Under the pieces are notes generated by a model that was not told the DNA's origin, did not search any database, and worked only from the letters and a program-made list of their open reading frames with translations. From a bacterium (GTDB taxonomy: Bacteria; UBA8248): 64,000 nt of DNA. Location: NCBI GenBank assembly GCA_963692865.2, contig OY843592.1, positions 384,001-448,000 of the forward strand. Direction: 5' to 3'. Both the position numbers and the translations under genes were made by a program. How positions within the stretch are numbered: the first letter of the stretch is position 1; each line of letters begins with the position of its first letter. Below, in pieces: positions 1,339 through 45,166 of this stretch.

Positions 1339-1644
1339 CTATGCGCCCCTCGCTTCGAGCGTCGGTATCCCGCTCACGTCCACCGTGCGTTCGGCGCGCG
1401 CCAGATCGTAGTTGCGCTGGAGGTTGAGCCAGAAACCCGAGCCGTTGCCGAAGAGCTTGCCGAAACGAACCGCCATCTCGGCAGTGACCGGCTGCTTCTC
1501 CTTCAGGATGTCGTAGAGCGTCTGCCGGGATATGCCGAGGGCCGCGGCCACCGCCGTCTTGCTGACGCCCAGGGCGGGCAGGACGTCCTCGCGCAGGATT
1601 TCCCCCGGATGCGCCGGGTCGATGGAAGGGTGTCTCTCGATCAT
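1339..1644 (-). CDS. higA: HigA family addiction module antitoxin (HTH)
   Basis: PAHPGEILREDVL..LGVSKTAVAAALGISRQTL..I...KQPVTAEMAVRFGKLFGNGSGFWLNLQRNYDL; ATG overlaps the upstream toxin-remnant stop (TGATG). Confidence 0.92.
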   Translation of the reverse strand: MIERHPSIDPAHPGEILREDVLPALGVSKTAVAAALGISRQTLYDILKEKQPVTAEMAVRFGKLFGNGSGFWLNLQRNYDLARAERTVDVSGIPTLEARGA

Positions 1645-1755
1645 CAGTGGCAGTCCTCGATGTCGACGTCCTTTGCGCCGTCGTCGTCCCACCCGAAAGT
1701 GACGCGCATGTTGGCGCTCAGGCGAACGGCGTAGCGCCCCGCCATATCGCCTTGA
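1644..1755 (-). pseudogene. higB: HigB (RelE/ParE) toxin C-terminal remnant
   Basis: Translates to GDMAGRYAVRLSANMRVTFGWDDDGAKDVDIEDCH*, matching the HigB C-terminal half; N-terminal half missing. Confidence 0.8.
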
Positions 1756-1793
1756 GGGTCAATTCCGACCAAGGCGGGAGGGGTTTTCAATTG

Positions 1794-1851
1794 TAGGGAC
1801 AGGCCCCTGTGCCTGTCCTATAGGGGACAACCACGGGGGGGTTGTCCCTAC
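1794..1851. repeat. GTAG-type REP-like palindrome doublet
   Basis: GTAGGGACAGGCCCCTGTGCCTGTCC...GGACAACCACGGGGGGGTTGTCCCTAC. Confidence 0.7.
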
Positions 1852-2053
1852 CATTACCGCATCCCAGGCACCCCTCGTCCGTCCTCTCGTCCAATCATCC
1901 CGCAGGCCCTTGTGTCGAATGCTCCCGATCATGGATAAAAGCTAACCACAGCGGCAGGAATTGTCAAGTAATAGCTTACAAAACTTTCGTGCCGCAAAGC
2001 GCCCGAACACGGGGCAGTCCCTGCGAAAGAGAAAAACGCACATCACCTCGCCC

Positions 2054-2911
2054 CTAAAACTTCCTGAGCGGCGTCGCCTCCCGGTCGAAAAGCGCACGTC
2101 TTGCGACGTTCCAGATTTCGAAATGTGTCTTGCGAAGCGTCTCGGGCGAAGCCGCGAGCCAGCGGACAAGCGCGCCGGGGCCGGAGAGCCGCGTGCAGCC
2201 GCCGGCCAGGCCGGAAGCTCCCGCCAGCAGGGCGTCGACCTGCCCGGCAATGAGGTCCAACTCCGCATCCGTCCCGCCTGCCACGTAGAAAGAACCGAGA
2301 TAAGGATAAGGCTCGAAAAGGCCGAGGCGTTCGGGGTTCGATTCTCCGGGCCGCACCTCCATCACGTCGCGCAGGAGCGGCGCGCCCGCGTAGTCGACAT
2401 GCAGCTTTATGTTCAAGGACGTGTAATCAAAATGCTCGCCCGAGGCGACGCGGCCGTGATAGAGCGACTCCCCGTAGAGAAGCCGCGCGCCCTCGGCCAT
2501 GGAGATTCGCGTCTCCTGCGCGTAGATGGAATCGGCATAGGGGATGACGGGGTCGGGCAGGAGTTCGAGGCCGCTTCCCGCGCCCATCTCGATGTGCGTG
2601 GTCGAAACCACCGGCTCGCCCAGGCTCTTGTAGACCTTGGTGGCTCCCTGCGTCGTCCACAGGACGCGCGCGCCTTCATCGAGCGCGATTTCGAGTTCGA
2701 GCACGTCGCCGCCCACGTGCCCGCCCGTCGGGTTGATGAGCGTCAGGTGGGCGGGCGCCTCCCCCTCGGGATAATTGGGGCGCATCACCTGAAGCGGCAC
2801 GCGGAAGAACGAATCCGCGAGGTACGTCCGGCCGCCCGCGCGCGCGAACCGGGCGAGGGCGACGCCGTGGCGTCCCACGCGGGAGGGCGCGGAGGCGCCG
2901 GCGGGCGGCAT
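2054..2911 (-). CDS. ureD: Urease accessory protein UreD
   Basis: INPTGGHVGGDVL, TTQGATKVYKS and LPDPVIPY motifs; last gene of urease operon. Confidence 0.93.
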   Translation of the reverse strand: MPPAGASAPSRVGRHGVALARFARAGGRTYLADSFFRVPLQVMRPNYPEGEAPAHLTLINPTGGHVGGDVLELEIALDEGARVLWTTQGATKVYKSLGEPVVSTTHIEMGAGSGLELLPDPVIPYADSIYAQETRISMAEGARLLYGESLYHGRVASGEHFDYTSLNIKLHVDYAGAPLLRDVMEVRPGESNPERLGLFEPYPYLGSFYVAGGTDAELDLIAGQVDALLAGASGLAGGCTRLSGPGALVRWLAASPETLRKTHFEIWNVARRALFDREATPLRKF

Positions 2912-3528
2912 CAGGCCTCCACGAAGAGGAGTTCGCGCTCGATCCAGCCGATCACCTCACCCAAGCCCTGTTCGGCTTTCAGGTTCGTGAACAGGAACGG
3001 GCGTTCGCCGCGCATCTTGCGGGCGTCGCTGTCCATGACTTCGAGACTCGCGCCCACGAGCGGGGCCAGGTCTATCTTGTTGATCAGCAGGAGTTCGGAG
3101 CGCGTGATGCCGGGGCCGCCCTTTCGGGGAATCTTGTCCCCCGCCGACACGTCGATGACGTAGATCGACGCGTCCACGAGCTCGGGGCTGAAGGTGGCCG
3201 CGAGGTTGTCTCCCCCGCTTTCCACGAAAATGATGTCGAGCGGATGGAAATCGCGCGCGAGCAACTCCATGGCTTCGCGGTTGAGCGATATGTCCTCGCG
3301 GATGGCGGTGTGCGGGCACCCGCCCGTCTCCACGCCGGATATCCGCTCGGGCGCGAGCGCGCCGCTTCGCGTCAGGAATTCCGCGTCCTCTTTCGTGTAG
3401 ATGTCGTTCGTCACCACGGCGATGGCGTACCTGTCGCGCATCCGCTTGCACAGCCTGTCCACCAGGGCGGTCTTGCCCGAGCCGACCGGCCCGCCCACGC
3501 CTATCTTTACGGGCGCCTTATCCATCAT
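2911..3528 (-). CDS. ureG: Urease accessory GTPase UreG
   Basis: [35 protein letters not shown]; AGGAGG RBS before ATG 3528. Confidence 0.97.
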
Positions 3529-32935: not shown

Positions 32936-33022
32936 CTTCGCTCACTCGTTGGCCAAGGATGAAAGACGCCCCCAAGGATAAACGCGATTGCGCGAAAGGG
33001 GAAGGGCAAACGCGATTGATGA
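32829..33022. repeat. ~195-bp direct repeat, copy 1 (5' end and upstream region of the oxidoreductase gene)
   Basis: Near-identical to 34444-34640 by direct comparison. Confidence 0.9.
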
Positions 33023-33024
33023 GG

Positions 33025-33310
33025 GGTTGTTGAAAAACCCCGAGAGGGAGGGTTTGCCGTCATTCCGGCGCATGCCGGAATCCAGGGAATTTGTTTTTGC
33101 CTTGTCGGTTTTGGCAGTCGTTCGGCGGTGTTGCCTTCCTCGTCAGCTCTGGATTCCGGCATCCGCCGGAATGACGATCAAAAGCATATCCGCCGTAGGG
33201 ACTACGCGAGACGCGATGGTTCTGTAGGGGAGGACCTGTGTGTCCTCCCCCGCACGTCGTTTTGGTCGTGAGCCTGACGTAGGGGCGGTTCGCGAACCGA
33301 CCCTACGGTG
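33025..33310. repeat. REP/MITE mosaic (GTCATTCCGG..CCGGAATCC pair and GTAGGGG palindromes)
   Basis: GGTTGTTGAAAAAC end; inverted GTCATTCCGGCGCATGCCGGAATCCAG / CTGGATTCCGGCATCCGCCGGAATGAC; GTAGGGGCGGTTCGCGAACCGACCCTAC. Confidence 0.65.
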
Positions 33311-33420
33311 GATGTGGGTATTGCTCGTCATTCCCTCATCTCTCAGCTTCAGCGCCGAATCACGAAATCAGGGTTTTTTACCGGTCCTCCTCGGTCAAGA
33401 CTGATTGCCAACGGGAAAAT

Positions 33421-33505
33421 TATTCACGCCTATTAGGTAAAATATCGTGAATAAAGAGCATATTCTGCGCATCATTCACGATAAATTGATATTTTAACGT
33501 GAATG
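33421..33505. promoter_or_regulatory. Tandem palindromic operator-like sites upstream of fic
   Basis: ATTCACG-N17-CGTGAAT occurs twice (33422-33452, 33474-33504) in an AT-rich promoter region. Confidence 0.62.
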
Positions 33506-33520
33506 AAGTATGTTCATGGC

Positions 33521-34411
33521 ATGGCTACTCCGGGACCGACAAGAGATCGCATCGGGGCTCTCAAGCGCGAATACGACGCCTTGCGCCGGGGCAGGGAATC
33601 GCTTCTGGCGATGATCGACGAGGTGGAAGCGCCCGAGAGCGTCTACAACTCGAACGCGATAGAAAACTCCACCCTCACCCTCGATGAGACCGAAAGAATC
33701 CTGCTGGAGCAATCCCTCTCGCGCGAGGTGTCCGTGCGGGAGGTCTTCGAGGCCAGGAACCTGGCGCGGGTCACCGAATACAAGCGCGCGCGCGCGGAAG
33801 AGGGCGAACTGGACGAGGAGTTGATACTGCTCTTGCACCGGATGCTCATCGGCGGCATCGACGACGGAATCGCGGGCCGCTTTCGGGGGCGGGGGGAGTA
33901 CGTGCGCGTGGGCGCGCACATCGCGCCGGCGCCCGAGCACGTGGAGCGCATGATGGAGAACGTCCTCCTCACATATTCGAGCGATCTGGATTCCTACTTC
34001 CTGGACAAGATCGCGCGCTTTCATCTCGACTTCGAGACGATTCACCCCTTCTGCGACGGCAACGGCCGCATCGGGCGGGTGATCATCAATTTCCAGCTTC
34101 TGCGGCTCGGCCTGCCGCGCCTCATCGTCCGCAACTCGGACAAGGAGCGCTACTACCGGGCGTTTGATGATTACAGAGACCGCCGGACGGCCCGGACGAT
34201 GGAGAGCATCCTCTCGCTCGCGCTGCTGGAGTCGCTCCACAAGCGGGTGACCTACCTGCGGGGCGAACCGGTCGCGCGGCTCTCCGACTACATCAGGAAG
34301 GGAGGCCTCTCGGCCCCCGCCGCCACCAACGCCGCCCGCCGCCAGACCATCCCCGCCTTCCGGGAGAGGGGCGTGTGGAAGATCGGGGAGGGGGAGTCGG
34401 TCAAGGATTGA
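33521..34411 (+). CDS. Fic family protein with C-terminal putative DNA-binding extension
   Basis: YNSNAIENS inhibitory-helix motif and canonical HPFCDGNGRIGR; alternative start 33503. Confidence 0.93.
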   Translation: MATPGPTRDRIGALKREYDALRRGRESLLAMIDEVEAPESVYNSNAIENSTLTLDETERILLEQSLSREVSVREVFEARNLARVTEYKRARAEEGELDEELILLLHRMLIGGIDDGIAGRFRGRGEYVRVGAHIAPAPEHVERMMENVLLTYSSDLDSYFLDKIARFHLDFETIHPFCDGNGRIGRVIINFQLLRLGLPRLIVRNSDKERYYRAFDDYRDRRTARTMESILSLALLESLHKRVTYLRGEPVARLSDYIRKGGLSAPAATNAARRQTIPAFRERGVWKIGEGESVKD

Positions 34412-34443
34412 CCCCGGCGCCGGATGCGCCGCCGACACACGCA

Positions 34444-34640
34444 TGCGCTTCGAACACGCGGAAGTCGAACCCCTCGGGGTGGCGGTTCAGCGCCCAGGCC
34501 GCCCCCAGCCCCGAGACCCCCGCGCCGATGATGGCGACTCTTCTCGGCATCTCCGCTCACTCGTTGGCCAAGGATGAAAAACGCCCCCAAGGATAAACGC
34601 GATTGCGTGATGAGGGAAGGGGGTCAAACACGATTGATGA
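34444..34640. repeat. ~195-bp direct repeat, copy 2 (truncated duplicate of oxidoreductase 5' end)
   Basis: Encodes MPRRVAIIGAGVSGLGAAWALNRHPEGFDFRVFEA on the minus strand, then breaks off. Confidence 0.9.
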
Positions 34641-34739
34641 ACGAGCGTTTGACGCGAGTGAGGAGGGAGCGATTGTATCAGGATGATTGCGGGGGCCGGA
34701 TGTTGACCTCCGCGTCAGGTCCGCCTCGTACCGGAATGA

Positions 34740-34772
34740 TTATGATGCCGAAGTGTCCGTGAAGAGAATCAA
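34740..34772 (-). pseudogene. PIN/VapC toxin N-terminal remnant
   Basis: TTG start overlapping hicB-like stop (TTGA); reads MILFTDTSAS*, matching the PIN first-strand hhDTSA motif. Confidence 0.5.
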
Positions 34773-35059
34773 GCGTATTCAGGAGCTGTATTGCTGTACG
34801 ATTCTTCCGTCCATCCCGAATACGTCGTGTTCAGATTCTCGTTGGTTCGAATGATGCGCCCGTGGTGTTCCATCATGGATTCGCAAATGCCGCCTATCGC
34901 TTCAATGATATTCGCAATGGCGCTTTCCCTGGTGTCGCCCTCTGAGATGCACCCTTCCAGGTCAAGACACTCGACGACATACCCACCGTCCGTTTCATCC
35001 GGCTCCAGCGAAACCTGAAATGGTCCATGATCCGACGTGTTGATGATGTATCGCTCCAT
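34769..35059 (-). CDS. HicB-family antitoxin
   Basis: LEPDETDGGYVVECLDLEGCISEGDTRESAIANIIEAI. Confidence 0.85.
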   Translation of the reverse strand: MERYIINTSDHGPFQVSLEPDETDGGYVVECLDLEGCISEGDTRESAIANIIEAIGGICESMMEHHGRIIRTNENLNTTYSGWTEESYSNTAPEYA

Positions 35060-35080
35060 GATTCGATGCTCCCGCTGTTT

Positions 35081-35182
35081 TTATCCTGCCCCATTCACTT
35101 CGTCATCCACTTTGGGCTGAGTGATGGGACCGAACTTGCTTTCATATTGCTCGATATTTTCACCCAGCGCCTCCGCCTGCAT
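35081..35182 (-). pseudogene. DUF3467-like protein C-terminal fragment
   Basis: EALGENIEQYESKFGPI matches the AL.ENI..YE.KFG.I end of DUF3467 proteins. Confidence 0.55.
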
Positions 35183-35330
35183 GGATTTTTACAGGAATAA
35201 TAGACGATCTTGCTCACTTACGGCAATTATGGCCAGGAGGCGGCAAGAACGCCCGTCGGGTTGGTTGCCATAGAAGAGGGTAGGGCGCTGTGGGAAAAGC
35301 GGTGAAGGTTGCTTGAATGAGGGTCACGAT

Positions 35331-35453
35331 AAAAAATAAACCCCCGGAGGGGCCGAAGCGTCGCGAGGGTTGAGTCGTTTCCCCGTTCGGGGAATTGCCT
35401 GCGAAGTTTTCTTCTTGTTATGAAAAGCAACGTAGGCATCGATCAGCTATAAT
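35331..35453 (-). ncRNA. tracrRNA
   Basis: 5'-ATTATAGCTGATCGATGCCTACGTTGCTTTTCATAAC is complementary to the crRNA repeat (lower stem UUCAUAAC:GUUGUGGA), followed by AAG nexus, hairpins and a CCCC..GGGG hairpin plus T tract. Confidence 0.85.
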
Positions 35454-35504
35454 CTGATATCCTGATACTTTATTTCTCATACATTGTCAATCGGGAGATT
35501 CATT

Positions 35505-38500
35505 ATGCCGCATCTCACGCTCGGGCTCGACCTCGGCCCGAACTCCATCGGCTGGGCGCTCGTCGAAGAGGACGAGTCCGGCAGCCCGCAAGGTCTCGAA
35601 GCCGCCGGCGTCCGCGTTTTTCAGGAAATGGTCGACAGGCAGAAGAAGACCCCGAAGAACCACAAGCGGCGCGACGCGCGCCAGGCCCGCCGCCAGCGCG
35701 CCAGAAGAAAAATGCGGCGCGACACCCTTACACGCGAACTCATCCGCTCCGGCCTTTTGCCGGAGAGCGCCGAGGATCGCCGGAAGTTATTCGGGTTCGA
35801 CCAGAAGAAAGAGGAGCAGAACGACCCCTACGAAATCAGAAAGCGCGGGCTGGACGATGAACTGACGCCGCACGAACTGGGCCGGGCTGTTTTCCACCTG
35901 AACCAGAGGCGGGGGTTTTTGAGCAACCGCAAGGTGCGCGATTCGGGAGACAAGAAAAAAGAAGACGGCGTGGTCAAAAAGGAGATTGGAGAACTCAGGA
36001 AGGAAATCGAGGAATCCGGCTCCCGGACGCTGGGCGAGTTTCTGGCGGATACGCCCAAAAAGAGAAACCGCCGCACGGAGCGGGCGATGTACGAGGAGGA
36101 GTTCGATGCTCTCTGGAAGAAGCAGGCGGCGTTCAAACCCGAACTGCTCACGGACGCGCTTCGCGCGCGAATTCGCAAAATCCTCTTCTTCCAGCGTCCC
36201 CTGAAGCTCCAGAAGTTTCTGGTCGGCAAATGCACTTTCGAGCCGCACAAGAAAAGGTGCCCCTGGTGCCGCCCCGAGGCGCAGTGGTTCAGGGCGCTCC
36301 AAGACGTGAACCATCTCGAAGTCAGAGTCCCCGAGACGGGCGGGTATCGCCCCCTCGACCAATCGGAAAGGGAAGTCATCAAAGAACAACTCCGGGAGAA
36401 GAAGACGCTCGGGTGGAACGGCGTCCGCAAGGCGCTGGGGTTTCACTCGGGCGAGACGTTCAATATCGAAGAGGGCGGGAAGAAGAACCTGATGGGCGCG
36501 CGCACGCTCATAGACGTCCGGAAAATCCTCACGAAAAAGACGTGGGAGGCCATGTCCGGCGAGCGGGAGGAGTTTCTGGACGAGTTGTTCAGTACCCACA
36601 AGGAAGAAACCCTGTTGAAGCGGCTGGAGAAGCGCTGGCGACTCTCCGATGAGAAGGCGGACGCTCTCCTGAATACGGAGTTTCAGCCCGGCTACGCGAG
36701 CCTCTCCCTCCGGGCGATTCGCAGAATCACGCCGCATCTGGAGAGAGGATTGAACTACCACGATGCCTGCCGGGCGGCAGGCTATCGGCATGAATACGAG
36801 AAGGAAATCGACGCGAAAGAAGCGCTCCCACGCGCTCCCGAACTCAGAAACCCCATCGTCCAGAAGGCGATCTACGAGGTGCGCAAGCTAGTGAATGCCG
36901 TCGTCCGCGAGTACGGGATGCCGAGGCGCATCCGTGTGGAGCTCGCGCGGGACCTGAAGATCGGTAAGAAGCAGAAAGACGCTCTGAACCGCCGGAACAG
37001 GCAAAACCGCGACCTGAACGACGAGGCGCGCAAGGTGATGGAGGAGGTGGGAGTTTCTGACAACGGGGCGAACAGGCTCAGATACCGGCTGTGGAAGCAG
37101 CAGAAGGGCCAGTGCCCCTACACGGGCGCGAGCATCGGCGCGCGCGATATTTTCAGCCCCGAATACGAGGTGGATCACGTTCTCCCCTACAGCCGGACGC
37201 TCGATGATTCCTACATGAACAAGGTGCTCTCCAAGGCTTCCGCCAACCGGGAGAAGGGGGACAGTACGCCTCATGAATGGAGGAGCGGCGATTCGGGAGA
37301 ATTCACCAAGATGCGCCAACGCGTATCTTCTATGAAGGACATGCCTTATTCCAAGAGAAGGCGCTTCGAGCAGAAAGAACTTGAACTCGATAAGTTTATC
37401 GAGCGCCAACTCAACGACACGCGCTACATCAGCCGCGAGGTGAAGGACTACCTCAAGGACCTGGGCGCGGACATGCAGATAACGACGGGACAAGCCACCG
37501 CCGCCCTGCGCCGTTTCTGGGATCTCAACAAGATTCTCGCCGTCGATTCGGACCTCGAAAAAAACCGCGCCGACCACCGCCACCACGCCATCGACGCGCT
37601 GGTCGTCGCTCTCACGAGCCGGAGCCTTTTCAAGAGCATTGCGGATATTGCCGCCGAATACCGGGAACACGCGGTTCTGGTTCTGAACCGGAGGCATTTT
37701 TCGCTCAGAGAACCCTGGCCCGGATTCATGGCCGACGTTCGCGGGGAGGTAGAGAAAATCGTCGTCTCCCATCAGCCGCTCAGGAAGATCAGCGGAGCCT
37801 TTCACGAGGAGACCGCCTACGGGCGTATCTCGCGCGACGGAGAGGACGTGTTCGTCCGAAGAGTCCCCCTCGAATCGCTCAGGCCGCCGCAGGTCGAGAA
37901 AATCGTCGACCGCCGCATCCGCGAACTCGTTCGGGAGCGCATGAAGGCTCACGACGGAAAAGCCAAGGACGCCTTCGCAAAGCCTCTCTATCTGGAGCAT
38001 TCAAACAAGGGAAAGGGCAGAACGCGAATCGAGACGGTGCGCGTCGCCGAGAACCTGAACCCGGACGGCCTATTCGGCGTCAAAAGAAAAGGAGAGGCGA
38101 AACCCTTCAAGTATTACGCATTGGGCAACAACCACCACGTTGAAATCATCGAGAATATAGAAACGGGCAGGCGTGCGGGCCGCGTCGTCACGGCCATGGA
38201 AGCGGCCCGGCGAGCGAGAAGGGCGCGGACCTCAATCGTCCGCCGCGACTGCGAGGAGGGCCAGCGGTTCGTGATGTCGCTCTCGATAAACGACGTGGTG
38301 AAGCTCGATGAGCCCGTGAACGGCTGCGATATGTACCGCGTTCAGAAAATTGGCAATATCGTAGCCACAGGGGCAATACAAATCACATTGCGAACACATG
38401 CAAGTGCTTCGATAGACGACAATGCAACACGACTACTTGTATCACCCAACACGCTCCGGGGACGCAAGATGTCCGTCGATCCCCTGGGCAAACTGGAGGC

Positions 38501-38513
38501 CGCCCATGATTAA
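35505..38513 (+). CDS. cas9: Type II-C CRISPR-associated endonuclease Cas9 (1002 aa)
   Basis: RuvC-I LGLDLGPNSIGWA, Arg-rich bridge helix, RuvC-II VELAR, HNH VDHVLPYS..DDSYMNKVL..ANREK, RuvC-III HHAIDALVVA. Confidence 0.97.
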   Translation: MPHLTLGLDLGPNSIGWALVEEDESGSPQGLEAAGVRVFQEMVDRQKKTPKNHKRRDARQARRQRARRKMRRDTLTRELIRSGLLPESAEDRRKLFGFDQKKEEQNDPYEIRKRGLDDELTPHELGRAVFHLNQRRGFLSNRKVRDSGDKKKEDGVVKKEIGELRKEIEESGSRTLGEFLADTPKKRNRRTERAMYEEEFDALWKKQAAFKPELLTDALRARIRKILFFQRPLKLQKFLVGKCTFEPHKKRCPWCRPEAQWFRALQDVNHLEVRVPETGGYRPLDQSEREVIKEQLREKKTLGWNGVRKALGFHSGETFNIEEGGKKNLMGARTLIDVRKILTKKTWEAMSGEREEFLDELFSTHKEETLLKRLEKRWRLSDEKADALLNTEFQPGYASLSLRAIRRITPHLERGLNYHDACRAAGYRHEYEKEIDAKEALPRAPELRNPIVQKAIYEVRKLVNAVVREYGMPRRIRVELARDLKIGKKQKDALNRRNRQNRDLNDEARKVMEEVGVSDNGANRLRYRLWKQQKGQCPYTGASIGARDIFSPEYEVDHVLPYSRTLDDSYMNKVLSKASANREKGDSTPHEWRSGDSGEFTKMRQRVSSMKDMPYSKRRRFEQKELELDKFIERQLNDTRYISREVKDYLKDLGADMQITTGQATAALRRFWDLNKILAVDSDLEKNRADHRHHAIDALVVALTSRSLFKSIADIAAEYREHAVLVLNRRHFSLREPWPGFMADVRGEVEKIVVSHQPLRKISGAFHEETAYGRISRDGEDVFVRRVPLESLRPPQVEKIVDRRIRELVRERMKAHDGKAKDAFAKPLYLEHSNKGKGRTRIETVRVAENLNPDGLFGVKRKGEAKPFKYYALGNNHHVEIIENIETGRRAGRVVTAMEAARRARRARTSIVRRDCEEGQRFVMSLSINDVVKLDEPVNGCDMYRVQKIGNIVATGAIQITLRTHASASIDDNATRLLVSPNTLRGRKMSVDPLGKLEAAHD

Positions 38514-39399
38514 ACGAATCGTCGAAATCGGAAGTCCCGCCCGTCTCTCGCTCAGCCGCAAGCAACTGAAAGTGGAGCGGGAGGAATTCGCCGCAGAGTC
38601 GCTCCCCGTGGAGGACCTGGGCGTCCTGATTCTCGACCACCCGGCCATCCGCCCCTCGCAGGGGCTGTTGTCCGAGTGCATGAAGAACAACGTCGCCGTC
38701 GTGATGTGCGACGAGAAGCACCTGCCCGCCTCCGTCCTCCTCCCGCTGGACGGACACACGCTGCACAGCAGGATCGTGAAGGAGCAGGCCGCCGCCACCC
38801 CCGGCAGGCTGAGCCGCCTGTGGCGGGCCATCGTGCGCGAGAAGATTCTCGCCCAGGCCGACGCGCTCGACGCCTTCGATGAATATGGAGAACCCCTGCG
38901 CGCCGTCGCCGGGCGCGCGGGGCGGGAGAACCCGGCCCAGGCCGAAGCCCGCGCCGCGAGAATGTACTGGCCGAGGATGTTCGGCGCGGATTTCAGGCGC
39001 AACCGCGCGCTTCCGGGCGTGAACCGGCTCCTGAACTACGGCTACTCGCTCATCCGCGCGGCCACGGCGCGCGCGGTCGTCGCCTCGGGTCTGCACCCCG
39101 CCTTCGGCCTGCACCACCACAACCAGTACGACGGCTTCTGCCTGGCGGACGACCTCATGGAGCCGCTCCGCCCGCTGGTGGACCGCCGGGTGCGCCGGAT
39201 GCGCGATGAGCCGGAGGAGTGGGGCGAGGAACTCGAACTGGAGAAGGAGGAGAAGCGCGAGCTTCTGGGCGTTCTGGCCGAGGACGTGCGGTTCGGCGGC
39301 AAGGCCTATCCCCTTCTCACCGCCCTTCAATACTACGCCGCGGGCGTCCGCCGCGTCGTCTGCGGGGAGGAGAAGGAAACGGAAATCCCCCGGCCATGA
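38506..39399 (+). CDS. cas1: Type II CRISPR-associated Cas1
   Basis: PVEDLG, VMCDEKHLP, EARAARMYW, LNYGY, GLHH.NQYDGFCLADDLMEP.RP. Confidence 0.96.
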   Translation: MIKRIVEIGSPARLSLSRKQLKVEREEFAAESLPVEDLGVLILDHPAIRPSQGLLSECMKNNVAVVMCDEKHLPASVLLPLDGHTLHSRIVKEQAAATPGRLSRLWRAIVREKILAQADALDAFDEYGEPLRAVAGRAGRENPAQAEARAARMYWPRMFGADFRRNRALPGVNRLLNYGYSLIRAATARAVVASGLHPAFGLHHHNQYDGFCLADDLMEPLRPLVDRRVRRMRDEPEEWGEELELEKEEKRELLGVLAEDVRFGGKAYPLLTALQYYAAGVRRVVCGEEKETEIPRP

Positions 39400-39725
39400 G
39401 CTTCGGGGGGTGGCGCAGCATGTGGCTCATGGTGATGTTCGATTTGCCGACCGACACCAAGGCGGCGCGCAAGGCCTATCAGGAGTTTCGGGGTTTCCTG
39501 CTCGAAGACGGCTTCACGATGCTTCAGTATTCGGTCTACGCCCGGCATTGTCCGAGTTCCGAGAACGCGGAGGTGCACGAGCGGCGCATCAACGCCGCCC
39601 TGCCCCCCGACGGGGAGGTGCGGCTCCTGCTCTTCACCGACAAGCAGTTCTCGCGGATGAAGATTTTCTATGGGAAGATACGCAAGGCGACGGAAAAGGC
39701 TCCCGAGCAGATCACGTTGTTCTGA
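39396..39725 (+). CDS. cas2: CRISPR-associated Cas2
   Basis: MWLMVMFDLPT, FRGFLLEDGFTMLQYSVY, TDKQF, QITLF. Confidence 0.96.
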   Translation: MSFGGWRSMWLMVMFDLPTDTKAARKAYQEFRGFLLEDGFTMLQYSVYARHCPSSENAEVHERRINAALPPDGEVRLLLFTDKQFSRMKIFYGKIRKATEKAPEQITLF

Positions 39726-39776
39726 CCTGTCTTCGGGAGCCTTGACCCAATCGGTTCAACCACTTGGAGAGAACCG

Positions 39777-42248
39777 ATTGTAGCTGATCGATGCCTGCGC
39801 GCAATCCACAACCCTTATAGCGCAGAGCCATGCGACGTTTTATTGTAGCTGATCGATGCCTGCGCGCAATCCACAACCTTACTTGCACGGTGTAGACACG
39901 ACCTGCTATTGTAGCTGATCGATGCCTGCGCGCAATCCACAACCGAAGCTTGCCAAGAGTGGCGATGAACGTTATTGTAGCTGATCGATGCCTGCGCGCA
40001 ATCCACAACTCCCCCTTTATTCTTGCCCCTTGTTTTTGATTGTAGCTGATCGATGCCTGCGCGCAATCCACAACTCGTTCCGTGTCCACCGCCAGGATCG
40101 GGTTATTGTAGCTGATCGATGCCTGCGCGCAATCCACAACCAAAGTTACGCTTTCCGAAAACGCGACGCATTGTAGCTGATCGATGCCTGCGCGCAATCC
40201 ACAACAATGACATTCGCCGGGTCGCTTTGGCGGCTATTGTAGCTGATCGATGCCTGCGCGCAATCCACAACTGGTGACGTCATACAACATTTATGACGGG
40301 AATTGTAGCTGATCGATGCCTGCGCGCAATCCACAACTGTGCAGGCCCGTACGAAGAATGGCCTGCATTGTAGCTGATCGATGCCTGCGCGCAATCCACA
40401 ACCCCATGACGAGGCCTTTGATTAGGCTTCCTATTGTAGCTGATCGATGCCTGCGCGCAATCCACAACTCCAGGCGAATTTCATACCCTCAATCACGCAT
40501 TGTAGCTGATCGATGCCTGCGCGCAATCCACAACTGGCCCGCCGTGAAGCCGATCCGGCGGCGGATTGTAGCTGATCGATGCCTGCGCGCAATCCACAAC
40601 CGAGGCGATGGAGGGGATGTCGCCACGATTATTGTAGCTGATCGATGCCTGCGCGCAATCCACAACTTTGACGTTGAGTTTCCGACTGAAACAATGAATT
40701 GTAGCTGATCGATGCCTGCGCGCAATCCACAACTTTGACGTTGAGTTTCCGACTGAAACAATGAATTGTAGCTGATCGATGCCTGCGCGCAATCCACAAC
40801 CCGGAAACATTCGGCCACCTTCCGCACGTATTGTAGCTGATCGATGCCTGCGCGCAATCCACAACCACGTCGTCAACGCCCGCGATGAGGGTTGCATTGT
40901 AGCTGATCGATGCCTGCGCGCAATCCACAACTTGAGCGCCCTCCTGCAACCCATGCCAACGATTGTAGCTGATCGATGCCTGCGCGCAATCCACAACTGT
41001 GTCGCTTTCGTTGTCTGCGGTAGCTCCATTGTAGCTGATCGATGCCTGCGCGCAATCCACAACTGTTCGCCACGGACAGCTTGCGCACGGCTTATTGTAG
41101 CTGATCGATGCCTGCGCGCAATCCACAACTAATTCTTCTACGCCCTAAGCACTCCGCCATTGTAGCTGATCGATGCCTGCGCGCAATCCACAACAAGAAC
41201 AGATCCGTATCCCGACACTTCGCGATTGTAGCTGATCGATGCCTGCGCGCAATCCACAACCACCACCATGATGTGCGCCGCATACAGCAATTGTAGCTGA
41301 TCGATGCCTGCGCGCAATCCACAACTAGATGCGGCCGACGACGTCGATCTCCATCATTGTAGCTGATCGATGCCTGCGCGCAATCCACAACCGCTCCGGC
41401 TCGGCTCCTCCTTCGACTATCATTGTAGCTGATCGATGCCTGCGCGCAATCCACAACAAGGCGCCAAGTACTATCCTGAGCTCTCTGATTGTAGCTGATC
41501 GATGCCTGCGCGCAATCCACAACTCTCAATCGGCTTTGGTGAAAACGCTCCGCATTGTAGCTGATCGATGCCTGCGCGCAATCCACAACTGATGAGGATA
41601 TAGTCATCACTGGCGCAAGATTGTAGCTGATCGATGCCTGCGCGCAATCCACAACAGAACAACACGAATTACCTCAAGGGATGGCATTGTAGCTGATCGA
41701 TGCCTGCGCGCAATCCACAACTCTATTGCGATTGGTATCATTATTGTTGCATTGTAGCTGATCGATGCCTGCGCGCAATCCACAACTGTGTTGCTTTCGT
41801 TGTTTGTGGGAGCTCCATTGTAGCTGATCGATGCCTGCGCGCAATCCACAACGCGGGCGCGATGACGCCAGCCGGAAGGGAGATTGTAGCTGATCGATGC
41901 CTGCGCGCAATCCACAACAATGAGCGCATCAGCCGCTTCGTGTAGTGGATTGTAGCTGATCGATGCCTGCGCGCAATCCACAACTCCATACCCATCACCC
42001 AAGCACCTTGAACAATTGTAGCTGATCGATGCCTGCGCGCAATCCACAACTAGGTTATTGTTGCGGCCCTACCCATGATGATTGTAGCTGATCGATGCCT
42101 GCGCGCAATCCACAACACCTCACGTCGCCGAGCGATGAAGAGGTCAATTGTAGCTGATCGATGCCTGCGCGCAATCCACAACGGATGGGCCGATGGGTTG
42201 CTGGCTATCATGATTGTAGCTGATCGATGCCTGCGCGCAATCCACAAC
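39777..42248 (-). CRISPR. Type II-C CRISPR array, 38 identical 36-nt repeats, 37 spacers (29-31 nt)
   Basis: Repeat (crRNA sense) GTTGTGGATTGCGCGCAGGCATCGATCAGCTACAAT; orientation inferred from tracrRNA pairing; repeats counted manually. Confidence 0.98.
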
Positions 42249-42249
42249 G

Positions 42250-42276
42250 GCTTTCAGTATTTATATCGTCATGGGG
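42250..42276 (-). promoter_or_regulatory. Putative array leader/promoter, copy 1
   Basis: CCCCATGACGATATAAATACTGAAAGC immediately 5' of the first repeat in crRNA sense; identical copy at 42437-42463. Confidence 0.55.
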
Positions 42277-43009
42277 TGGCGTCCTCCCACCCCCTGAAAC
42301 CCAACAAGCCATCGTCGCCGAAATCGAAGCCGAACAGGCCCTGGTCGAGAGGTGGCCGCAAACCACAGTTACTTTGACGACTGGCGCAGGCCCAATTAAA
42401 GTGTAGCAAGTCGAGAGGTGGCCGCAAACCACAGTCGCTTTCAGTATTTATATCGTCATGGGGAGAGGCGTTCTGGACTTTCTCCGGGTCCAGTTTCGCC
42501 AGAATCTCGAAGCTGTGCGCTCCCTTGTTGTAGCATTGTTTCTGGGTGTTGCGAGTGGCATCTTTCAGGCCCTTCTCGATATTACCTTTGGCGATTTGCT
42601 CAATCCGTAGATTTTGCGGGAGCGCATTCTCCCGGTAGCCCTGACCAAAGAATTCCTTTAGCGCATCCTTATCGGCCAGAAACCACGACTCCACGATTTG
42701 CACCATGAGGTGGCACTGGTTGTCCGCCGCGCCCTCGGGACGGGGCCATCCGTCGCGTTTGTTGAGGTGTCGCCATGATCCTGCTTCATTCACCGGTTCC
42801 TCGGCATCTACGAGAAGCATGGCGCTTCCTTGTTGATGGGCGACCACGAAATCATTGTATGCGTTGCCACGACCGCCGCAGGCTACGATTCTGGGCATCA
42901 TTCCAGCCAAACCCGCCTTCTCGATGAAAGTCCGAAAACCTTCGCGGCACGCCGTCCTCAGAATTTTGCCGTCGCCGCCGCCTTCCACACAGAGCTTGAT
43001 GCTCACCAC
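42269..43009 (-). CDS. DUF4276 family (TOPRIM-like) protein; native C-terminus replaced by CRISPR-derived sequence
   Basis: VEGGGD, IVACGGR..AY.DF, LLVDAE, HLMVQIVESWFLAD, YNKGAHS; after ...NASP the frame runs through leader and mini-array. Confidence 0.8.
   Translation of the reverse strand: MVSIKLCVEGGGDGKILRTACREGFRTFIEKAGLAGMMPRIVACGGRGNAYNDFVVAHQQGSAMLLVDAEEPVNEAGSWRHLNKRDGWPRPEGAADNQCHLMVQIVESWFLADKDALKEFFGQGYRENALPQNLRIEQIAKGNIEKGLKDATRNTQKQCYNKGAHSFEILAKLDPEKVQNASPHDDINTESDCGLRPPLDLLHFNWACASRQSNCGLRPPLDQGLFGFDFGDDGLLGFRGWEDATP
42281..42349 (+). pseudogene. Type I R-M specificity subunit (HsdS-like) fragment
   Basis: VLPPPETQQAIVAEIEAEQALVE matches the conserved LPP.E.Q..IV..IE helix of HsdS/N6-methylase fusions. 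Confidence 0.65.
42344..42435 (-). CRISPR. Second CRISPR mini-array with a different repeat (1 full + 1 truncated repeat, 1 spacer)
   Basis: Repeat ACTGTGGTTTGCGGCCACCTCTCGACTTGCTACACT (42400-42435), 30-nt spacer 42370-42399, identical 26-nt partial repeat 42344-42369; 66-nt period. Confidence 0.8.
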
Positions 43010-44202
43010 CTGTTTCCTCCGATATCCCCGCGTGTCCAGAGTTCGCCGAGGCGGTATTTATCGAGCCAGGGTTCGAGTTCGTTTGCGTCGAGGCGGTGAA
43101 GCCGCGTGGCGCCTTCGGACTTCTCGCAGACGACGATGGCTTCCGGCGTGTCCGTGAGCGCATCCACGAGAACGTCGGAGTGCGTCGTTACGAAAATCTG
43201 GCTGCGCGATGACGCCTCGACGAGTAGTTTCGCCACTTCCGGGATGATGTCCGGATGCAGCCCGATCTCCGGCTCCTCGATGCAGACGACCGGCGGCGGG
43301 TCGGGGTGGCAGAGCACGGCGAGCAGGCACAGGTAGCGCAGGCTCCCGTCCGAGAGCCGCGTGGCGGGCACGGAATGTTGCAGGTCTTCTTCGTGGAGGA
43401 ATATCTGCACCTCGCCGGTCGCTATGTCAGTAGTGACATCCCCTATTGATTGATAGAAGGTTCTCAAATGTTCCAGTATCTGGCGTTTTAGGGGAGGGCG
43501 GTTCAACAGATCGTTCAGAACCAAAGCGAGGTTCGAGGCGTCCTCCAGAAGATTTTTCTTTGGCAGGTCGGTTCGCCCCGGACTGCGCGGCGGCTCGCCG
43601 TGCTCGAAACTCCATTCGCGATAGAAGCGCATACGCTCGAATTCATCGGCCAGATAGGTCAACTCGGGATAAGAATCGGGGTCTCGCCGCTGTGAGAGAA
43701 TCGACTGGTCGTACTTTACGTCTTCTCGCTTGAGATGTCGTTTGTGACCGGGTTCCTCCTCAGTGAAAACATTGAGCGCCGGATGGCCGTCTTGATAGCG
43801 GTAGTAGAAAAAAGGATCTTGTTTGTCTGGTGTCGGTTTCTCGTTCTCCACGGCCTCGTCTTTGAGTTCGAAACGCGATCCGGATTCCGTGAACGACAGT
43901 CGATATCTGAGGGGCTGCTGTCCCTTTGGGTATTCGAGGGTAGCGTCCACGGTCGCCTTGCCGGGTTCGTGCGTTCCCTTCCAGAGCCAATGGCGGACGC
44001 CTCCCCCAGTCCGAATCGGCTCTTGAAGCTCTTTGCCGGGTGCGGCGGCGAGAAGGGATAGCGCTTCGATCAGGTTCGACTTACCCGAAGCGTTCGGCCC
44101 GATGAGGACGTTGAGCGGCTCCAGGGGAAACTCTTCGGACGAAGGGCCGTAGGAGAGGACGTTCTCCAGGCGGATCGTCCGAATGAACCTCCTGCCCTCC
44201 AT
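43003..44202 (-). CDS. AAA/ABC-family ATPase (AAA_21-like)
   Basis: IGPNASGKSNLIEAL, LSDGSLR, IEEPEIGLHPD, FVTTHS; stop overlaps DUF4276 start. Confidence 0.9.
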   Translation of the reverse strand: MEGRRFIRTIRLENVLSYGPSSEEFPLEPLNVLIGPNASGKSNLIEALSLLAAAPGKELQEPIRTGGGVRHWLWKGTHEPGKATVDATLEYPKGQQPLRYRLSFTESGSRFELKDEAVENEKPTPDKQDPFFYYRYQDGHPALNVFTEEEPGHKRHLKREDVKYDQSILSQRRDPDSYPELTYLADEFERMRFYREWSFEHGEPPRSPGRTDLPKKNLLEDASNLALVLNDLLNRPPLKRQILEHLRTFYQSIGDVTTDIATGEVQIFLHEEDLQHSVPATRLSDGSLRYLCLLAVLCHPDPPPVVCIEEPEIGLHPDIIPEVAKLLVEASSRSQIFVTTHSDVLVDALTDTPEAIVVCEKSEGATRLHRLDANELEPWLDKYRLGELWTRGDIGGNRW

Positions 44203-44546
44203 GCTCTGCTCTCCCCGGGTTCGCCACAACTGAATCAGGATCATTTTCGGGAACAGGATAGCATACGCGGGCGTATAACCCACCAGCCGCGCGGCTCACA
44301 ATCGGAGGGTCGCCTCGCCCGGCGATTTTTCGCTTATCGGTTGGAATCGCCCCGCCTATTTCAGGATACGCCGCCGATATTTCGCGTTAAAGCCGGGTTT
44401 TTCCCCGTCCGCAAAGCAGGGCGGTTCGCGAACCGCCCTTGCGGGACGCCGGACGAGAGGGTTCCGGCCCGACGGGCGAAGCCGCGCGCGGGGGCAATCC
44501 CCGCCCCGCCCGATCAGGCCCTTCGGTACAAACGCTCCTTTCTCGG

Positions 44547-44770
44547 GGTTGTTGAAAAAGCCCTTGCGGGCCGGTCGGTATCTCACCGTAGGGGCCGCAT
44601 ATCATGCGGCCCTGCCTTTTCGCCTTCACAATACGGGTCGCATGATATGTCAGACATATATGTCTGACCTACGGGTAAAACGTGGTTGATGCGAGAGGGA
44701 TAGGTTTTTCAACAACCCCTTGTCAGGGGGGTGGAAGCGACGCCCCCGGCGAGGGGTTTTTCAACTACCC
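44547..44770. mobile_element. MITE-like element with REP cargo
   Basis: GGTTGTTGAAAAAGCC...GGTTTTTCAACAACC with GTAGGGGCCGCATATCATGCGGCC / GGTCGCATGATATGTCAGACATATATGTCTGACCTAC. Confidence 0.7.
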
Positions 44771-45166
44771 CTTATCGGCTGGAATTGGCCCGCCCGTTCC
44801 GGGATACGCCGCGGATGTTTCGCGTTAAAGTCGTGATTGACTCGCAAAAGCGGCGTGAATTTCAAGCCGCGCATTTCCCCGCAATTGCCGTGTCCAAGTT
44901 TTCGCGCGCGCGGGCGATACTCCCGCGCGGGGAATCGACCCCGGTTGACGGGCAGGGGATTGCCGATCAAGGAGCGGGGGGCGCCGTTCCCGTCGATGGA
45001 GGAGGAGAAAATGATGCGAGCGGTTCGGTCGTCGATGCGCTCCCGGGCGGGGCGCTCCCTCCCCGGCCGGGCGTGCGCCGACTCCGGGAGGAGGACGAAC
45101 GGCGGCCGCTCCCTGCCCGGCGGACCGCGAGCCCCCGCTCATCCGGCCCGGTTCGGCCCCCGCGCG

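Follow-up and report, generated by a model that had tools for sequence, protein, structure and literature searches.

Why does a repeat that differs from the resident one lie directly beyond the end of a complete type II-C CRISPR locus, and can it have a function there? The question is raised by positions 42249 to 42463 of a 64,000-nucleotide (nt) stretch of bacterial DNA (assembly GCA_963692865.2, contig OY843592.1, positions 384,001 to 448,000), hereafter termed the window. An initial annotation of this sequence had described a second mini-array with a foreign repeat, here called R', and had offered two readings of it, namely a relic of a displaced II-C system or a non-canonical guide, similar to the small CRISPR-Cas-associated RNA (scaRNA), that uses the resident Cas9 and the resident trans-activating CRISPR RNA (tracrRNA) for regulation. 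We consider it likely that recombination left the mini-array behind as an inert fossil when a second II-C system was displaced, one that consisted of a second cas9 gene (cas9'), its own tracrRNA (tracr') and an array of R' repeats. A fossil is favoured over a regulatory guide because the second Cas9 system is still intact in two related genomes, and the relic should do nothing in its present host because its own effector and tracrRNA are missing there.

Anatomy and cognate system of the mini-array

The mini-array and its immediate neighbours are composed as follows.
42344-42369, minus strand: partial R', nt 1-26 of the repeat as read in the sense of the CRISPR RNA (crRNA), from sequence read and repeat finder
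42370-42399, minus strand: spacer S', 30 nt, from sequence read; no target found
42400-42435, minus strand: full R', 36 nt, of the cas9'-lineage type according to its sequence and the repeat family in the congeners G013 and G001
39777-42248, minus strand (crRNA sense): main II-C array with 38 repeats of 36 nt and 37 spacers of 29-31 nt
42250-42276: A1, the cas-distal flank of the main array, from sequence and genome search
42437-42463: A2, encoding part of a non-native tail of a DUF4276 gene, from sequence and genome search

On the plus strand, the last main repeat is followed by a single g, A1, 67 nt (42277-42343), the partial R', S', the full R', a single c and A2. The start of one R' copy lies 66 nt from that of the other, with identity over all 26 nt that they have in common, and the layout given in the initial annotation (36-nt repeat, 30-nt spacer, 26-nt partial copy, 66-nt period) was confirmed by reading the sequence and by a repeat finder. 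With direct repeats of about 36 nt on either side of a spacer of about 30 nt, the element has the anatomy of a II-C array. The statement that the foreign repeat shares only 23 of 36 positions with the main repeat (R) also held; the agreement clusters at positions 3-7, 9-13, 22-25 and 29-34 in crRNA sense, as read by eye. Exact repeats of 26 nt and 27 nt within 220 nt cannot be a product of chance.

The origin of R' is indicated by related genomes. R'-type repeats are present in three of 42 family genomes, one of them the genome of the window. The congener G013 carries 23 such repeats, the consensus of which differs from the R' of the window by two mismatches and the terminal, cas-distal copy of which is degenerate (eight mismatches), and the congener G001 carries two, in the order tracr'-cas9'-repeats. 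In both congeners a cas9' gene lies directly in front of the R' array, encoding 1067 amino acids (aa) in G013 and 1085 aa in G001, and an own R' anti-repeat is located upstream of cas9' on the opposite strand. Between the two Cas9' proteins the identity is 68%, and they share approximately 31% identity with the resident Cas9. The nearest solved relatives of both the resident Cas9 and the Cas9' lineage are Cas9 chains of about 1082 aa, which we take to be those of Neisseria meningitidis and Geobacillus. The duplex of the window's R' with tracr' was predicted at -42.0 kcal/mol for G013 and -44.7 kcal/mol for G001. In a collection of 185,579 species, two records of metagenome-assembled genomes (MAGs) hold an R'-type repeat, at the coordinates of G001 and G013, and the R' core had no exact match in JGI metagenome contigs. 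Judged by these sequence relationships, R' belongs, as its cognate repeat, to a second Cas9 lineage of type II-C, which supports the first of the two readings offered by the initial annotation.

The partners of this repeat were not found in the genome of the window, a 4.15-Mb MAG of eight contigs with a completeness of 97.4% and a contamination of 6.7%. The search for a second repeat, cas9 and tracrRNA suggested by the initial annotation was thus successful in G013 and G001, but the window's genome yielded neither a second cas9 nor a second tracrRNA. A tblastn search of the eight contigs with both Cas9' proteins matched the resident cas9 alone (about 31% identity), and this gene is the sole cas9 of the genome (tblastn, one copy). 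An anti-repeat for R' was absent from the genome at up to seven mismatches in 26 nt, all three matches being the repeats themselves, and blastn with tracr' of G013 and G001 gave only chance matches of 15 nt. For the spacer S', no match was obtained in the genome at up to eight mismatches, and its 20 repeat-proximal nt had no match in viral contigs.

A variable defence hot spot and its junctions

The surroundings of the mini-array comprise the following features.
34391-42456: block of approximately 8 kb that is missing from the corresponding site of the congener G022 (alignment to G022)
34769-35059, minus strand: HicB-like open reading frame (ORF), 96 aa, antitoxin domain (E 6e-8)
35331-35453, minus strand: tracrRNA, by sequence, with the anti-repeat at the 5' end and a hairpin and T-run at the 3' end
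35484-38513, plus strand: cas9, 1009 aa, type II-C size (Pfam RuvC_III, HNH_4, Cas9_a)
38422-39399, plus strand: cas1 (Pfam Cas_Cas1)
39396-39725, plus strand: cas2, the start taken from the translation; the homologous ORF of G013 matches Pfam CRISPR_Cas2
39726-39776: array flank next to cas2, probable acquisition leader, its last 24 nt or so conserved
42283-42348, plus strand: fragment of a type I hsdM-S gene, 66 nt, residues 776-797 of the 829-aa protein of G012
42269-43009, minus strand: DUF4276 (HEC-01B) gene, 246 residues, domain and PADLOC match; the native part ends near 42457
43003-44283, minus strand: AAA_21 ATPase (HEC-01A) gene, partner of the DUF4276 gene, Pfam and PADLOC match

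In G022 (locus L006), the window positions 33407-34390 correspond to 456-1440 and the positions 42457-44200 to 1501-3244, and since these flanks are only 60 nt apart there, the stretch 34391-42456 represents an insertion relative to G022. The inserted block contains the HicB-like ORF, the tracrRNA, cas9, cas1, cas2, the main array, A1, the hsdM-S fragment, the mini-array and most of A2. Its right-hand neighbours, the AAA_21 and DUF4276 genes, form the PADLOC candidate pair HEC-01A/B. At the same site, G012 carries hsdR (847 aa) and a fused hsdM-S gene (829 aa; Pfam N6_Mtase and Methylase_S), and in G016 the hsdM-S gene ends approximately 240 nt from the DUF4276 stop. Between the hsdM-S and DUF4276 genes of G012 we found a solo degenerate main-type repeat (seven of 36 positions mismatched; L019:6642-6677), which suggests that a main-type array was once present in the hot spot of the species of G012, too. 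As a side observation, the HicB-like ORF lies within the inserted block between its left boundary and the tracrRNA; a partner toxin was not identified.

Two properties of the locus had been missed by the initial annotation: its position in a variable defence hot spot, and the nature of the 67-nt segment that separates A1 from the partial R', an hsdM-S fragment. The segment 42283-42348 has 82-94% nucleotide identity to hsdM-S of five genomes, and 21 of the 22 residues that it encodes are identical to the G012 protein. At the junction of the fragment with the partial R', both parent sequences read GTCGA, hsdM-S of G016 having ...ATGGTCGAATCC... at this point, and we infer from this shared motif the signature of a microhomology-mediated illegitimate join. 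The DUF4276 gene is altered as well. Homology of its product to all four relatives compared stops at residue 184 of 246; the native proteins of relatives end in ...SPHAKRF..S*, and the window's gene has lost the last 16 or so native codons and gained a tail of 62 residues (42269-42456), in which A2, the mini-array and, in antisense, the hsdM-S fragment are read through up to the stop at 42269.

The following course of events would account for these junctions. The second II-C system, comprising cas9', tracr' and R', would have occupied the hot spot beside the HEC-01 pair at an earlier time, and an earlier allele in this population may have carried cas9' and an R' array that ended in A beside a truncated DUF4276 gene. 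The present cassette, in the order tracrRNA-cas9-cas1-cas2-array-A, would then have arrived carrying or meeting hsdM-S sequence and displaced the second system, hsdM-S being presumably another former or alternative occupant of the site. A join at the GTCGA microhomology may have fused the hsdM-S piece to the inside of an R' repeat, and the same join would have deleted cas9', tracr' and all but the last one and a half R' units.

Alleles of the hot spot in Logan contigs

Over 41700-43000, Logan contigs from four sequencing runs of a single study were compared; being contigs, they carry no information on abundance. A contig of 811 nt from X1, which may be the window's own source sample, spans 42283-42646 with two differing letters and thereby covers the joins from the hsdM-S fragment through the partial R', the spacer, the full R' and A2 to the DUF4276 gene. 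The left junction, from the last main repeat through A1 to the fragment, is not covered by any listed read or contig and rests on the homology of the G013 flank up to 42297. The X2 contig contains 42400-43000 without any difference, but 26 other letters precede R'. In gap-free counts made by eye, these letters agree with the cas9'-proximal flanks of the R' arrays at 17 of 26 (G013) and 18 of 26 positions (G001); for the main array's cas2-proximal flank the count is 16 of 26. The X4 contig holds an hsdM-S piece (two differences), followed by 1685 other letters and the DUF4276 gene. In the runs of this one study, three or more alleles of the hot spot seem to co-exist, and in one of them an R' unit seems to lie behind a cas9'-type flank, beside A and the DUF4276 gene.

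These alleles bear on two further explanations, to neither of which we give much weight. The first assumes that the mini-array is a stand-by crRNA for cas9' and tracr' acting in trans, supplied by a plasmid, an unassembled replicon or a re-entering module, and that its spacer is a retained memory. In its favour, the 26 nt of the partial R' still contain all of the tracr'-pairing portion (the full repeat is predicted to pair at -42 to -45 kcal/mol), runs of the same study show co-existing alleles in which an R' unit follows a cas9'-type flank, and G013 has both Cas9 lineages in one genome. Nevertheless, such a role is improbable given that cas9' and tracr' were not found in the eight contigs, that a target of S' was found neither in the genome nor in viral contigs, and that the unit lies within the tail by which the DUF4276 gene is read through. 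Its -10-like box also reads TACACT, compared with TACAAT in the G013 consensus. The initial annotation had likened the end of the foreign repeat to the extended -10 box of Neisseria II-C repeats; R' does terminate in TGCTACACT in crRNA sense (minus strand), but a simple sigma-70 scan of 42000-42700 gave no site on the minus (crRNA) strand, so that the idea of a repeat-embedded promoter is one of resemblance only. The sole sigma-70-like site in 42000-42700 was located on the plus strand inside the spacer (42374-42402, TTGACG-17-TAAAGT) and points into the full R'; a transcript starting there would be antisense.

The second explanation regards the structure as an assembly chimera, in which co-existing alleles of the hot spot (main-type array, R', hsdM-S) were stitched together at short repeats. 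The contamination of the MAG mentioned above, the presence of at least three alleles of the site in contigs of one study, and the 27-nt repeat together with C-rich low-complexity bases at the joins would fit such an artefact. It is rendered improbable by the separate X1 contig that spans 42283-42646 with two differing letters, though possibly from the same sample, by the left join from the main repeat and A1 to 42297, which is matched by the flank of the G013 main-type array, and by the length of the window's contig (3.94 Mb).

Pairing with the resident tracrRNA and other properties of the resident locus

The tracrRNA that the initial annotation had placed at 35331-35453 was found there on the minus strand with its anti-repeat and terminator. 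Could it accept R'? For a scaRNA-like guide, an S'-R' RNA would have to pair imperfectly with this tracrRNA, enter the resident Cas9 and repress a gene by partial complementarity. The arrangement of an intact upstream and a degraded downstream repeat is that of regulatory mini-arrays reported in the part of a survey cited here (PMC10120712), and R and R' have both repeat ends in common within their 23 of 36 identical positions. However, the main repeat and the resident anti-repeat form a predicted duplex of -46.4 kcal/mol, compared with -16.6 kcal/mol for R', a value within 1.6 standard deviations of 300 shuffled R' sequences (-12.1±2.8 kcal/mol); the co-folding that the initial annotation had suggested thus came out close to the shuffled level. 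The search for seed matches that it had also suggested likewise ended negatively. S' had no match of at least 10 nt within 33000-45000, where a partial target near the locus was looked for, and its longest matches in the genome measured 13 nt (four observed, 1.6 expected from shuffles), none of which covers the repeat-proximal seed. Moreover, the mini-array was not found at this site in the other 41 family genomes. Because both testable features, tracrRNA pairing and a target, fail, the scaRNA-like reading is unsupported and very improbable, and by the predicted pairing R' is not a guide repeat for the resident Cas9.

A scan of 33000-45000 against Rfam with E up to 1 gave no match. A mini-array or solitary repeat unit (anti-CRISPR RNA) borne by a phage or another mobile genetic element was rejected, given that the neighbours are cas genes and the HEC-01 pair and that phage genes were not seen; a solitary unit mimicking the host repeat was rejected with regard to the mere 23 of 36 identical positions. 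Ordinary terminal degeneration of the main array, which the location of the element at the array end where old repeats decay might bring to mind, can be dismissed almost with certainty, as the initial annotation had already done on account of the match between the two R' copies: 95 nt of non-array DNA separate the two arrays, the full R' starts 187 nt past the start of the last main repeat and is out of register because 187 is not a multiple of 66, and the R' copies agree with each other and with the 23-copy array of G013, i.e. with another repeat family (two mismatches to its consensus).

The main array itself is uniform, all 38 repeats of 36 nt being perfect, and none of its 37 spacers has a self-target in the genome at up to four mismatches. 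At 40631-40764, two adjacent and identical repeat-spacer units of 67 nt (spacers 40667-40697 and 40734-40764) represent a tandem duplication within the array. The spacers 40998-41027 and 41787-41816 differ at four of 30 positions and seem to have been acquired independently, from variant forms of a single protospacer.

The 27-nt stretch A at two array ends

The identity of 42250-42276 and 42437-42463, noted in the initial annotation, was verified over all 27 positions; the genome contains no other copy at up to six mismatches, and exact matches in metagenome contigs were absent. The designation of this 27-mer as a leader shared by both arrays is probably wrong, because it lies at the cas-distal end. 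Conservation is instead seen on the other side, where about 24 nt beside the cas2-proximal repeat are conserved in all five main-type arrays (those of the window's genome, G013, G002, G009 and G007). In G002, G009 and G007, the cas-distal flanks bear no relation to A, and A as a widely conserved leader was rejected, since among 60 relatives searched G013 alone matched past the distal repeat; the distal flank of the window's main array is homologous to that of the G013 main-type array up to 42297. In the II-C system of N. meningitidis, the leader end downstream in crRNA sense is the cas2-proximal end. In the part of the work cited here (PMC12477760), crRNAs of this species start at the sixth nt of each spacer from promoters embedded in the repeats, and an array cut to the leader-adjacent repeat yields no crRNA. 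As that repeat alone yields none, the leader would be at the crRNA-downstream end. By this analogy and by flank conservation, A is probably not a functional leader but the cas-distal flank of the old array end.

In this lineage, both array types carry A as the cas-distal flank, and its two copies therefore probably mark two array ends and not two leaders. In keeping with an old end, degenerate terminal repeats at the distal end occur in the R' array of G013 (the copy with eight mismatches) and in a hybrid orphan elsewhere in the window's genome (five mismatches), which is described below. According to the flank alignments, the distal flanks of main-type and R'-type arrays are related in the window's genome, its hybrid orphan and G013, and weakly in G001, which fits a shared descent of the array ends.

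Several points weigh against an inert fossil. The assignment of leader and old end is one of analogy and flank conservation and is for that reason only probable. The bases that directly follow the two A copies differ, and the G013 homologue of A has diverged, whereas A1 and A2 are identical; this pattern speaks for a recent event of duplication or gene conversion, which displacement of a second system does not specifically explain. The likeness of the X2 flank to the cas9'-proximal flanks was counted by eye. In addition, the relic is formally a complete crRNA cassette with a full upstream repeat that has the -10-like TGCTACACT end, a 30-nt spacer and 26 repeat nt that would pair with a tracrRNA, and selection may act to maintain it. 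Given that the genome is a MAG, it is possible that cas9' and tracr' are located on an unassembled replicon.

Possible exchange of Cas9 modules within the genus

G013 has a composite II-C locus (L016:2964-9291), in which an IS256-like transposase gene is followed by a relic, cas1-cas2, tracr', cas9' and the R' array. The relic retains an anti-repeat and promoter of the main type, 85% identical to window 35419-35473, and cas1-cas2 follow after 3 nt, with a DNA identity of 91% to window 38440-39756 and a protein identity of 95% for Cas1. The main-type cas9 is cleanly missing from this locus. A complete main-type locus with just four repeats is also present in G013 (L020). On comparison of these sequences, the composite locus appears to be the result of an effector swap opposite in direction to that in the window.

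A second fossil was found outside the window in the same genome (C1:224839-224940; L002:1499-1600). This hybrid orphan comprises an R'-type repeat with four mismatches to the R' of the window, a 30-nt spacer and a degenerate main-type repeat with five mismatches, followed by a weakly A-like flank and a poly-C run. It lies in a defence island with genes for a BglII-like endonuclease, an N6_N4 methylase, DUF3800 and PDDEXK_11. Its spacer had no match in the genome at up to eight mismatches, and 22 nt of it gave no match in viral contigs. Together, these loci suggest that modules of Cas9, tracrRNA and repeat have been exchanged repeatedly in the genus, on an adaptation module held in common.

A more far-reaching assumption, which we regard as doubtful, is that the two Cas9 lineages use a single adaptation module and a common array architecture, take each other's place at the locus as cas9-tracrRNA-repeat cassettes and leave surviving units that act as reusable stored memory. 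If so, a surviving unit with its repeat-borne promoter, its spacer and its tracr'-pairing part could be put to use again each time a cas9'/tracr' module came back, fossils of earlier effectors would be kept at the array's old end, and pressure from Cas9-specific anti-CRISPRs could drive the replacement.

The mini-array alone is most likely junk. Together with the congeners, it would document the replacement of Cas9 effector modules in place, within a defence hot spot and in both directions within one genus, during which nearly the same cas1-cas2 was kept. The locus thus offers a testable case of modular effector turnover in type II systems and raises the question of whether one Cas1-Cas2 serves two repeat families. 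It also calls for caution in annotation: a repeat of a second type next to an array is not necessarily a regulatory RNA, even if it has a promoter-like box and shares a flank, and most such cases can be settled by co-folding with the resident tracrRNA and by a search for the cognate cas9 in relatives.

Comparison with known systems

The closest likeness is to orphan or degraded arrays that remain after the loss of cas genes, with which the mini-array shares repeats and a spacer of canonical size, the lack of the cognate cas genes and tracrRNA, and one truncated repeat. Unlike these, it is situated beside a complete but different II-C locus and is fused to a fragment of a restriction gene, and its cognate system can be named from congeners. 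The Francisella scaRNA and the tracr-L of Streptococcus pyogenes likewise consist of two repeat-like units around one spacer-like stretch near a cas locus, with a degraded downstream unit. However, these known elements are similar to the resident repeat, act through the resident effector and possess a partially matching target, whereas R' is the repeat of another Cas9 lineage. In the part of the survey cited here (PMC10120712), mini-arrays distinct from the tracrRNA were present in approximately 6% of type II loci, and unconserved mini-arrays without target near type III arrays were judged to be degraded repeats.

With the II-C array of N. meningitidis, as far as described in the part of the report cited here (PMC12477760), the locus shares 36-nt repeats, which end in GCTACAAT or GCTACACT in crRNA sense, a crRNA sense directed towards the cas genes, and a tracrRNA upstream of cas9 on the crRNA strand. 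Compared with the repeat promoters of this species, the likeness of R' is one of letters, and the scanned region around it held no minus-strand sigma-70 site. The variability of the site is that of other hot spots in defence islands: it is empty in G022, filled with a type I restriction-modification system in G012 and G016 and with CRISPR-Cas in the genome of the window, always beside the HEC-01 pair. In contrast to other defence hot spots, its junctions retain, next to one another, short remnants of two earlier occupants. The element is therefore not of a new kind and is best filed with the orphan or degraded arrays of defence islands.

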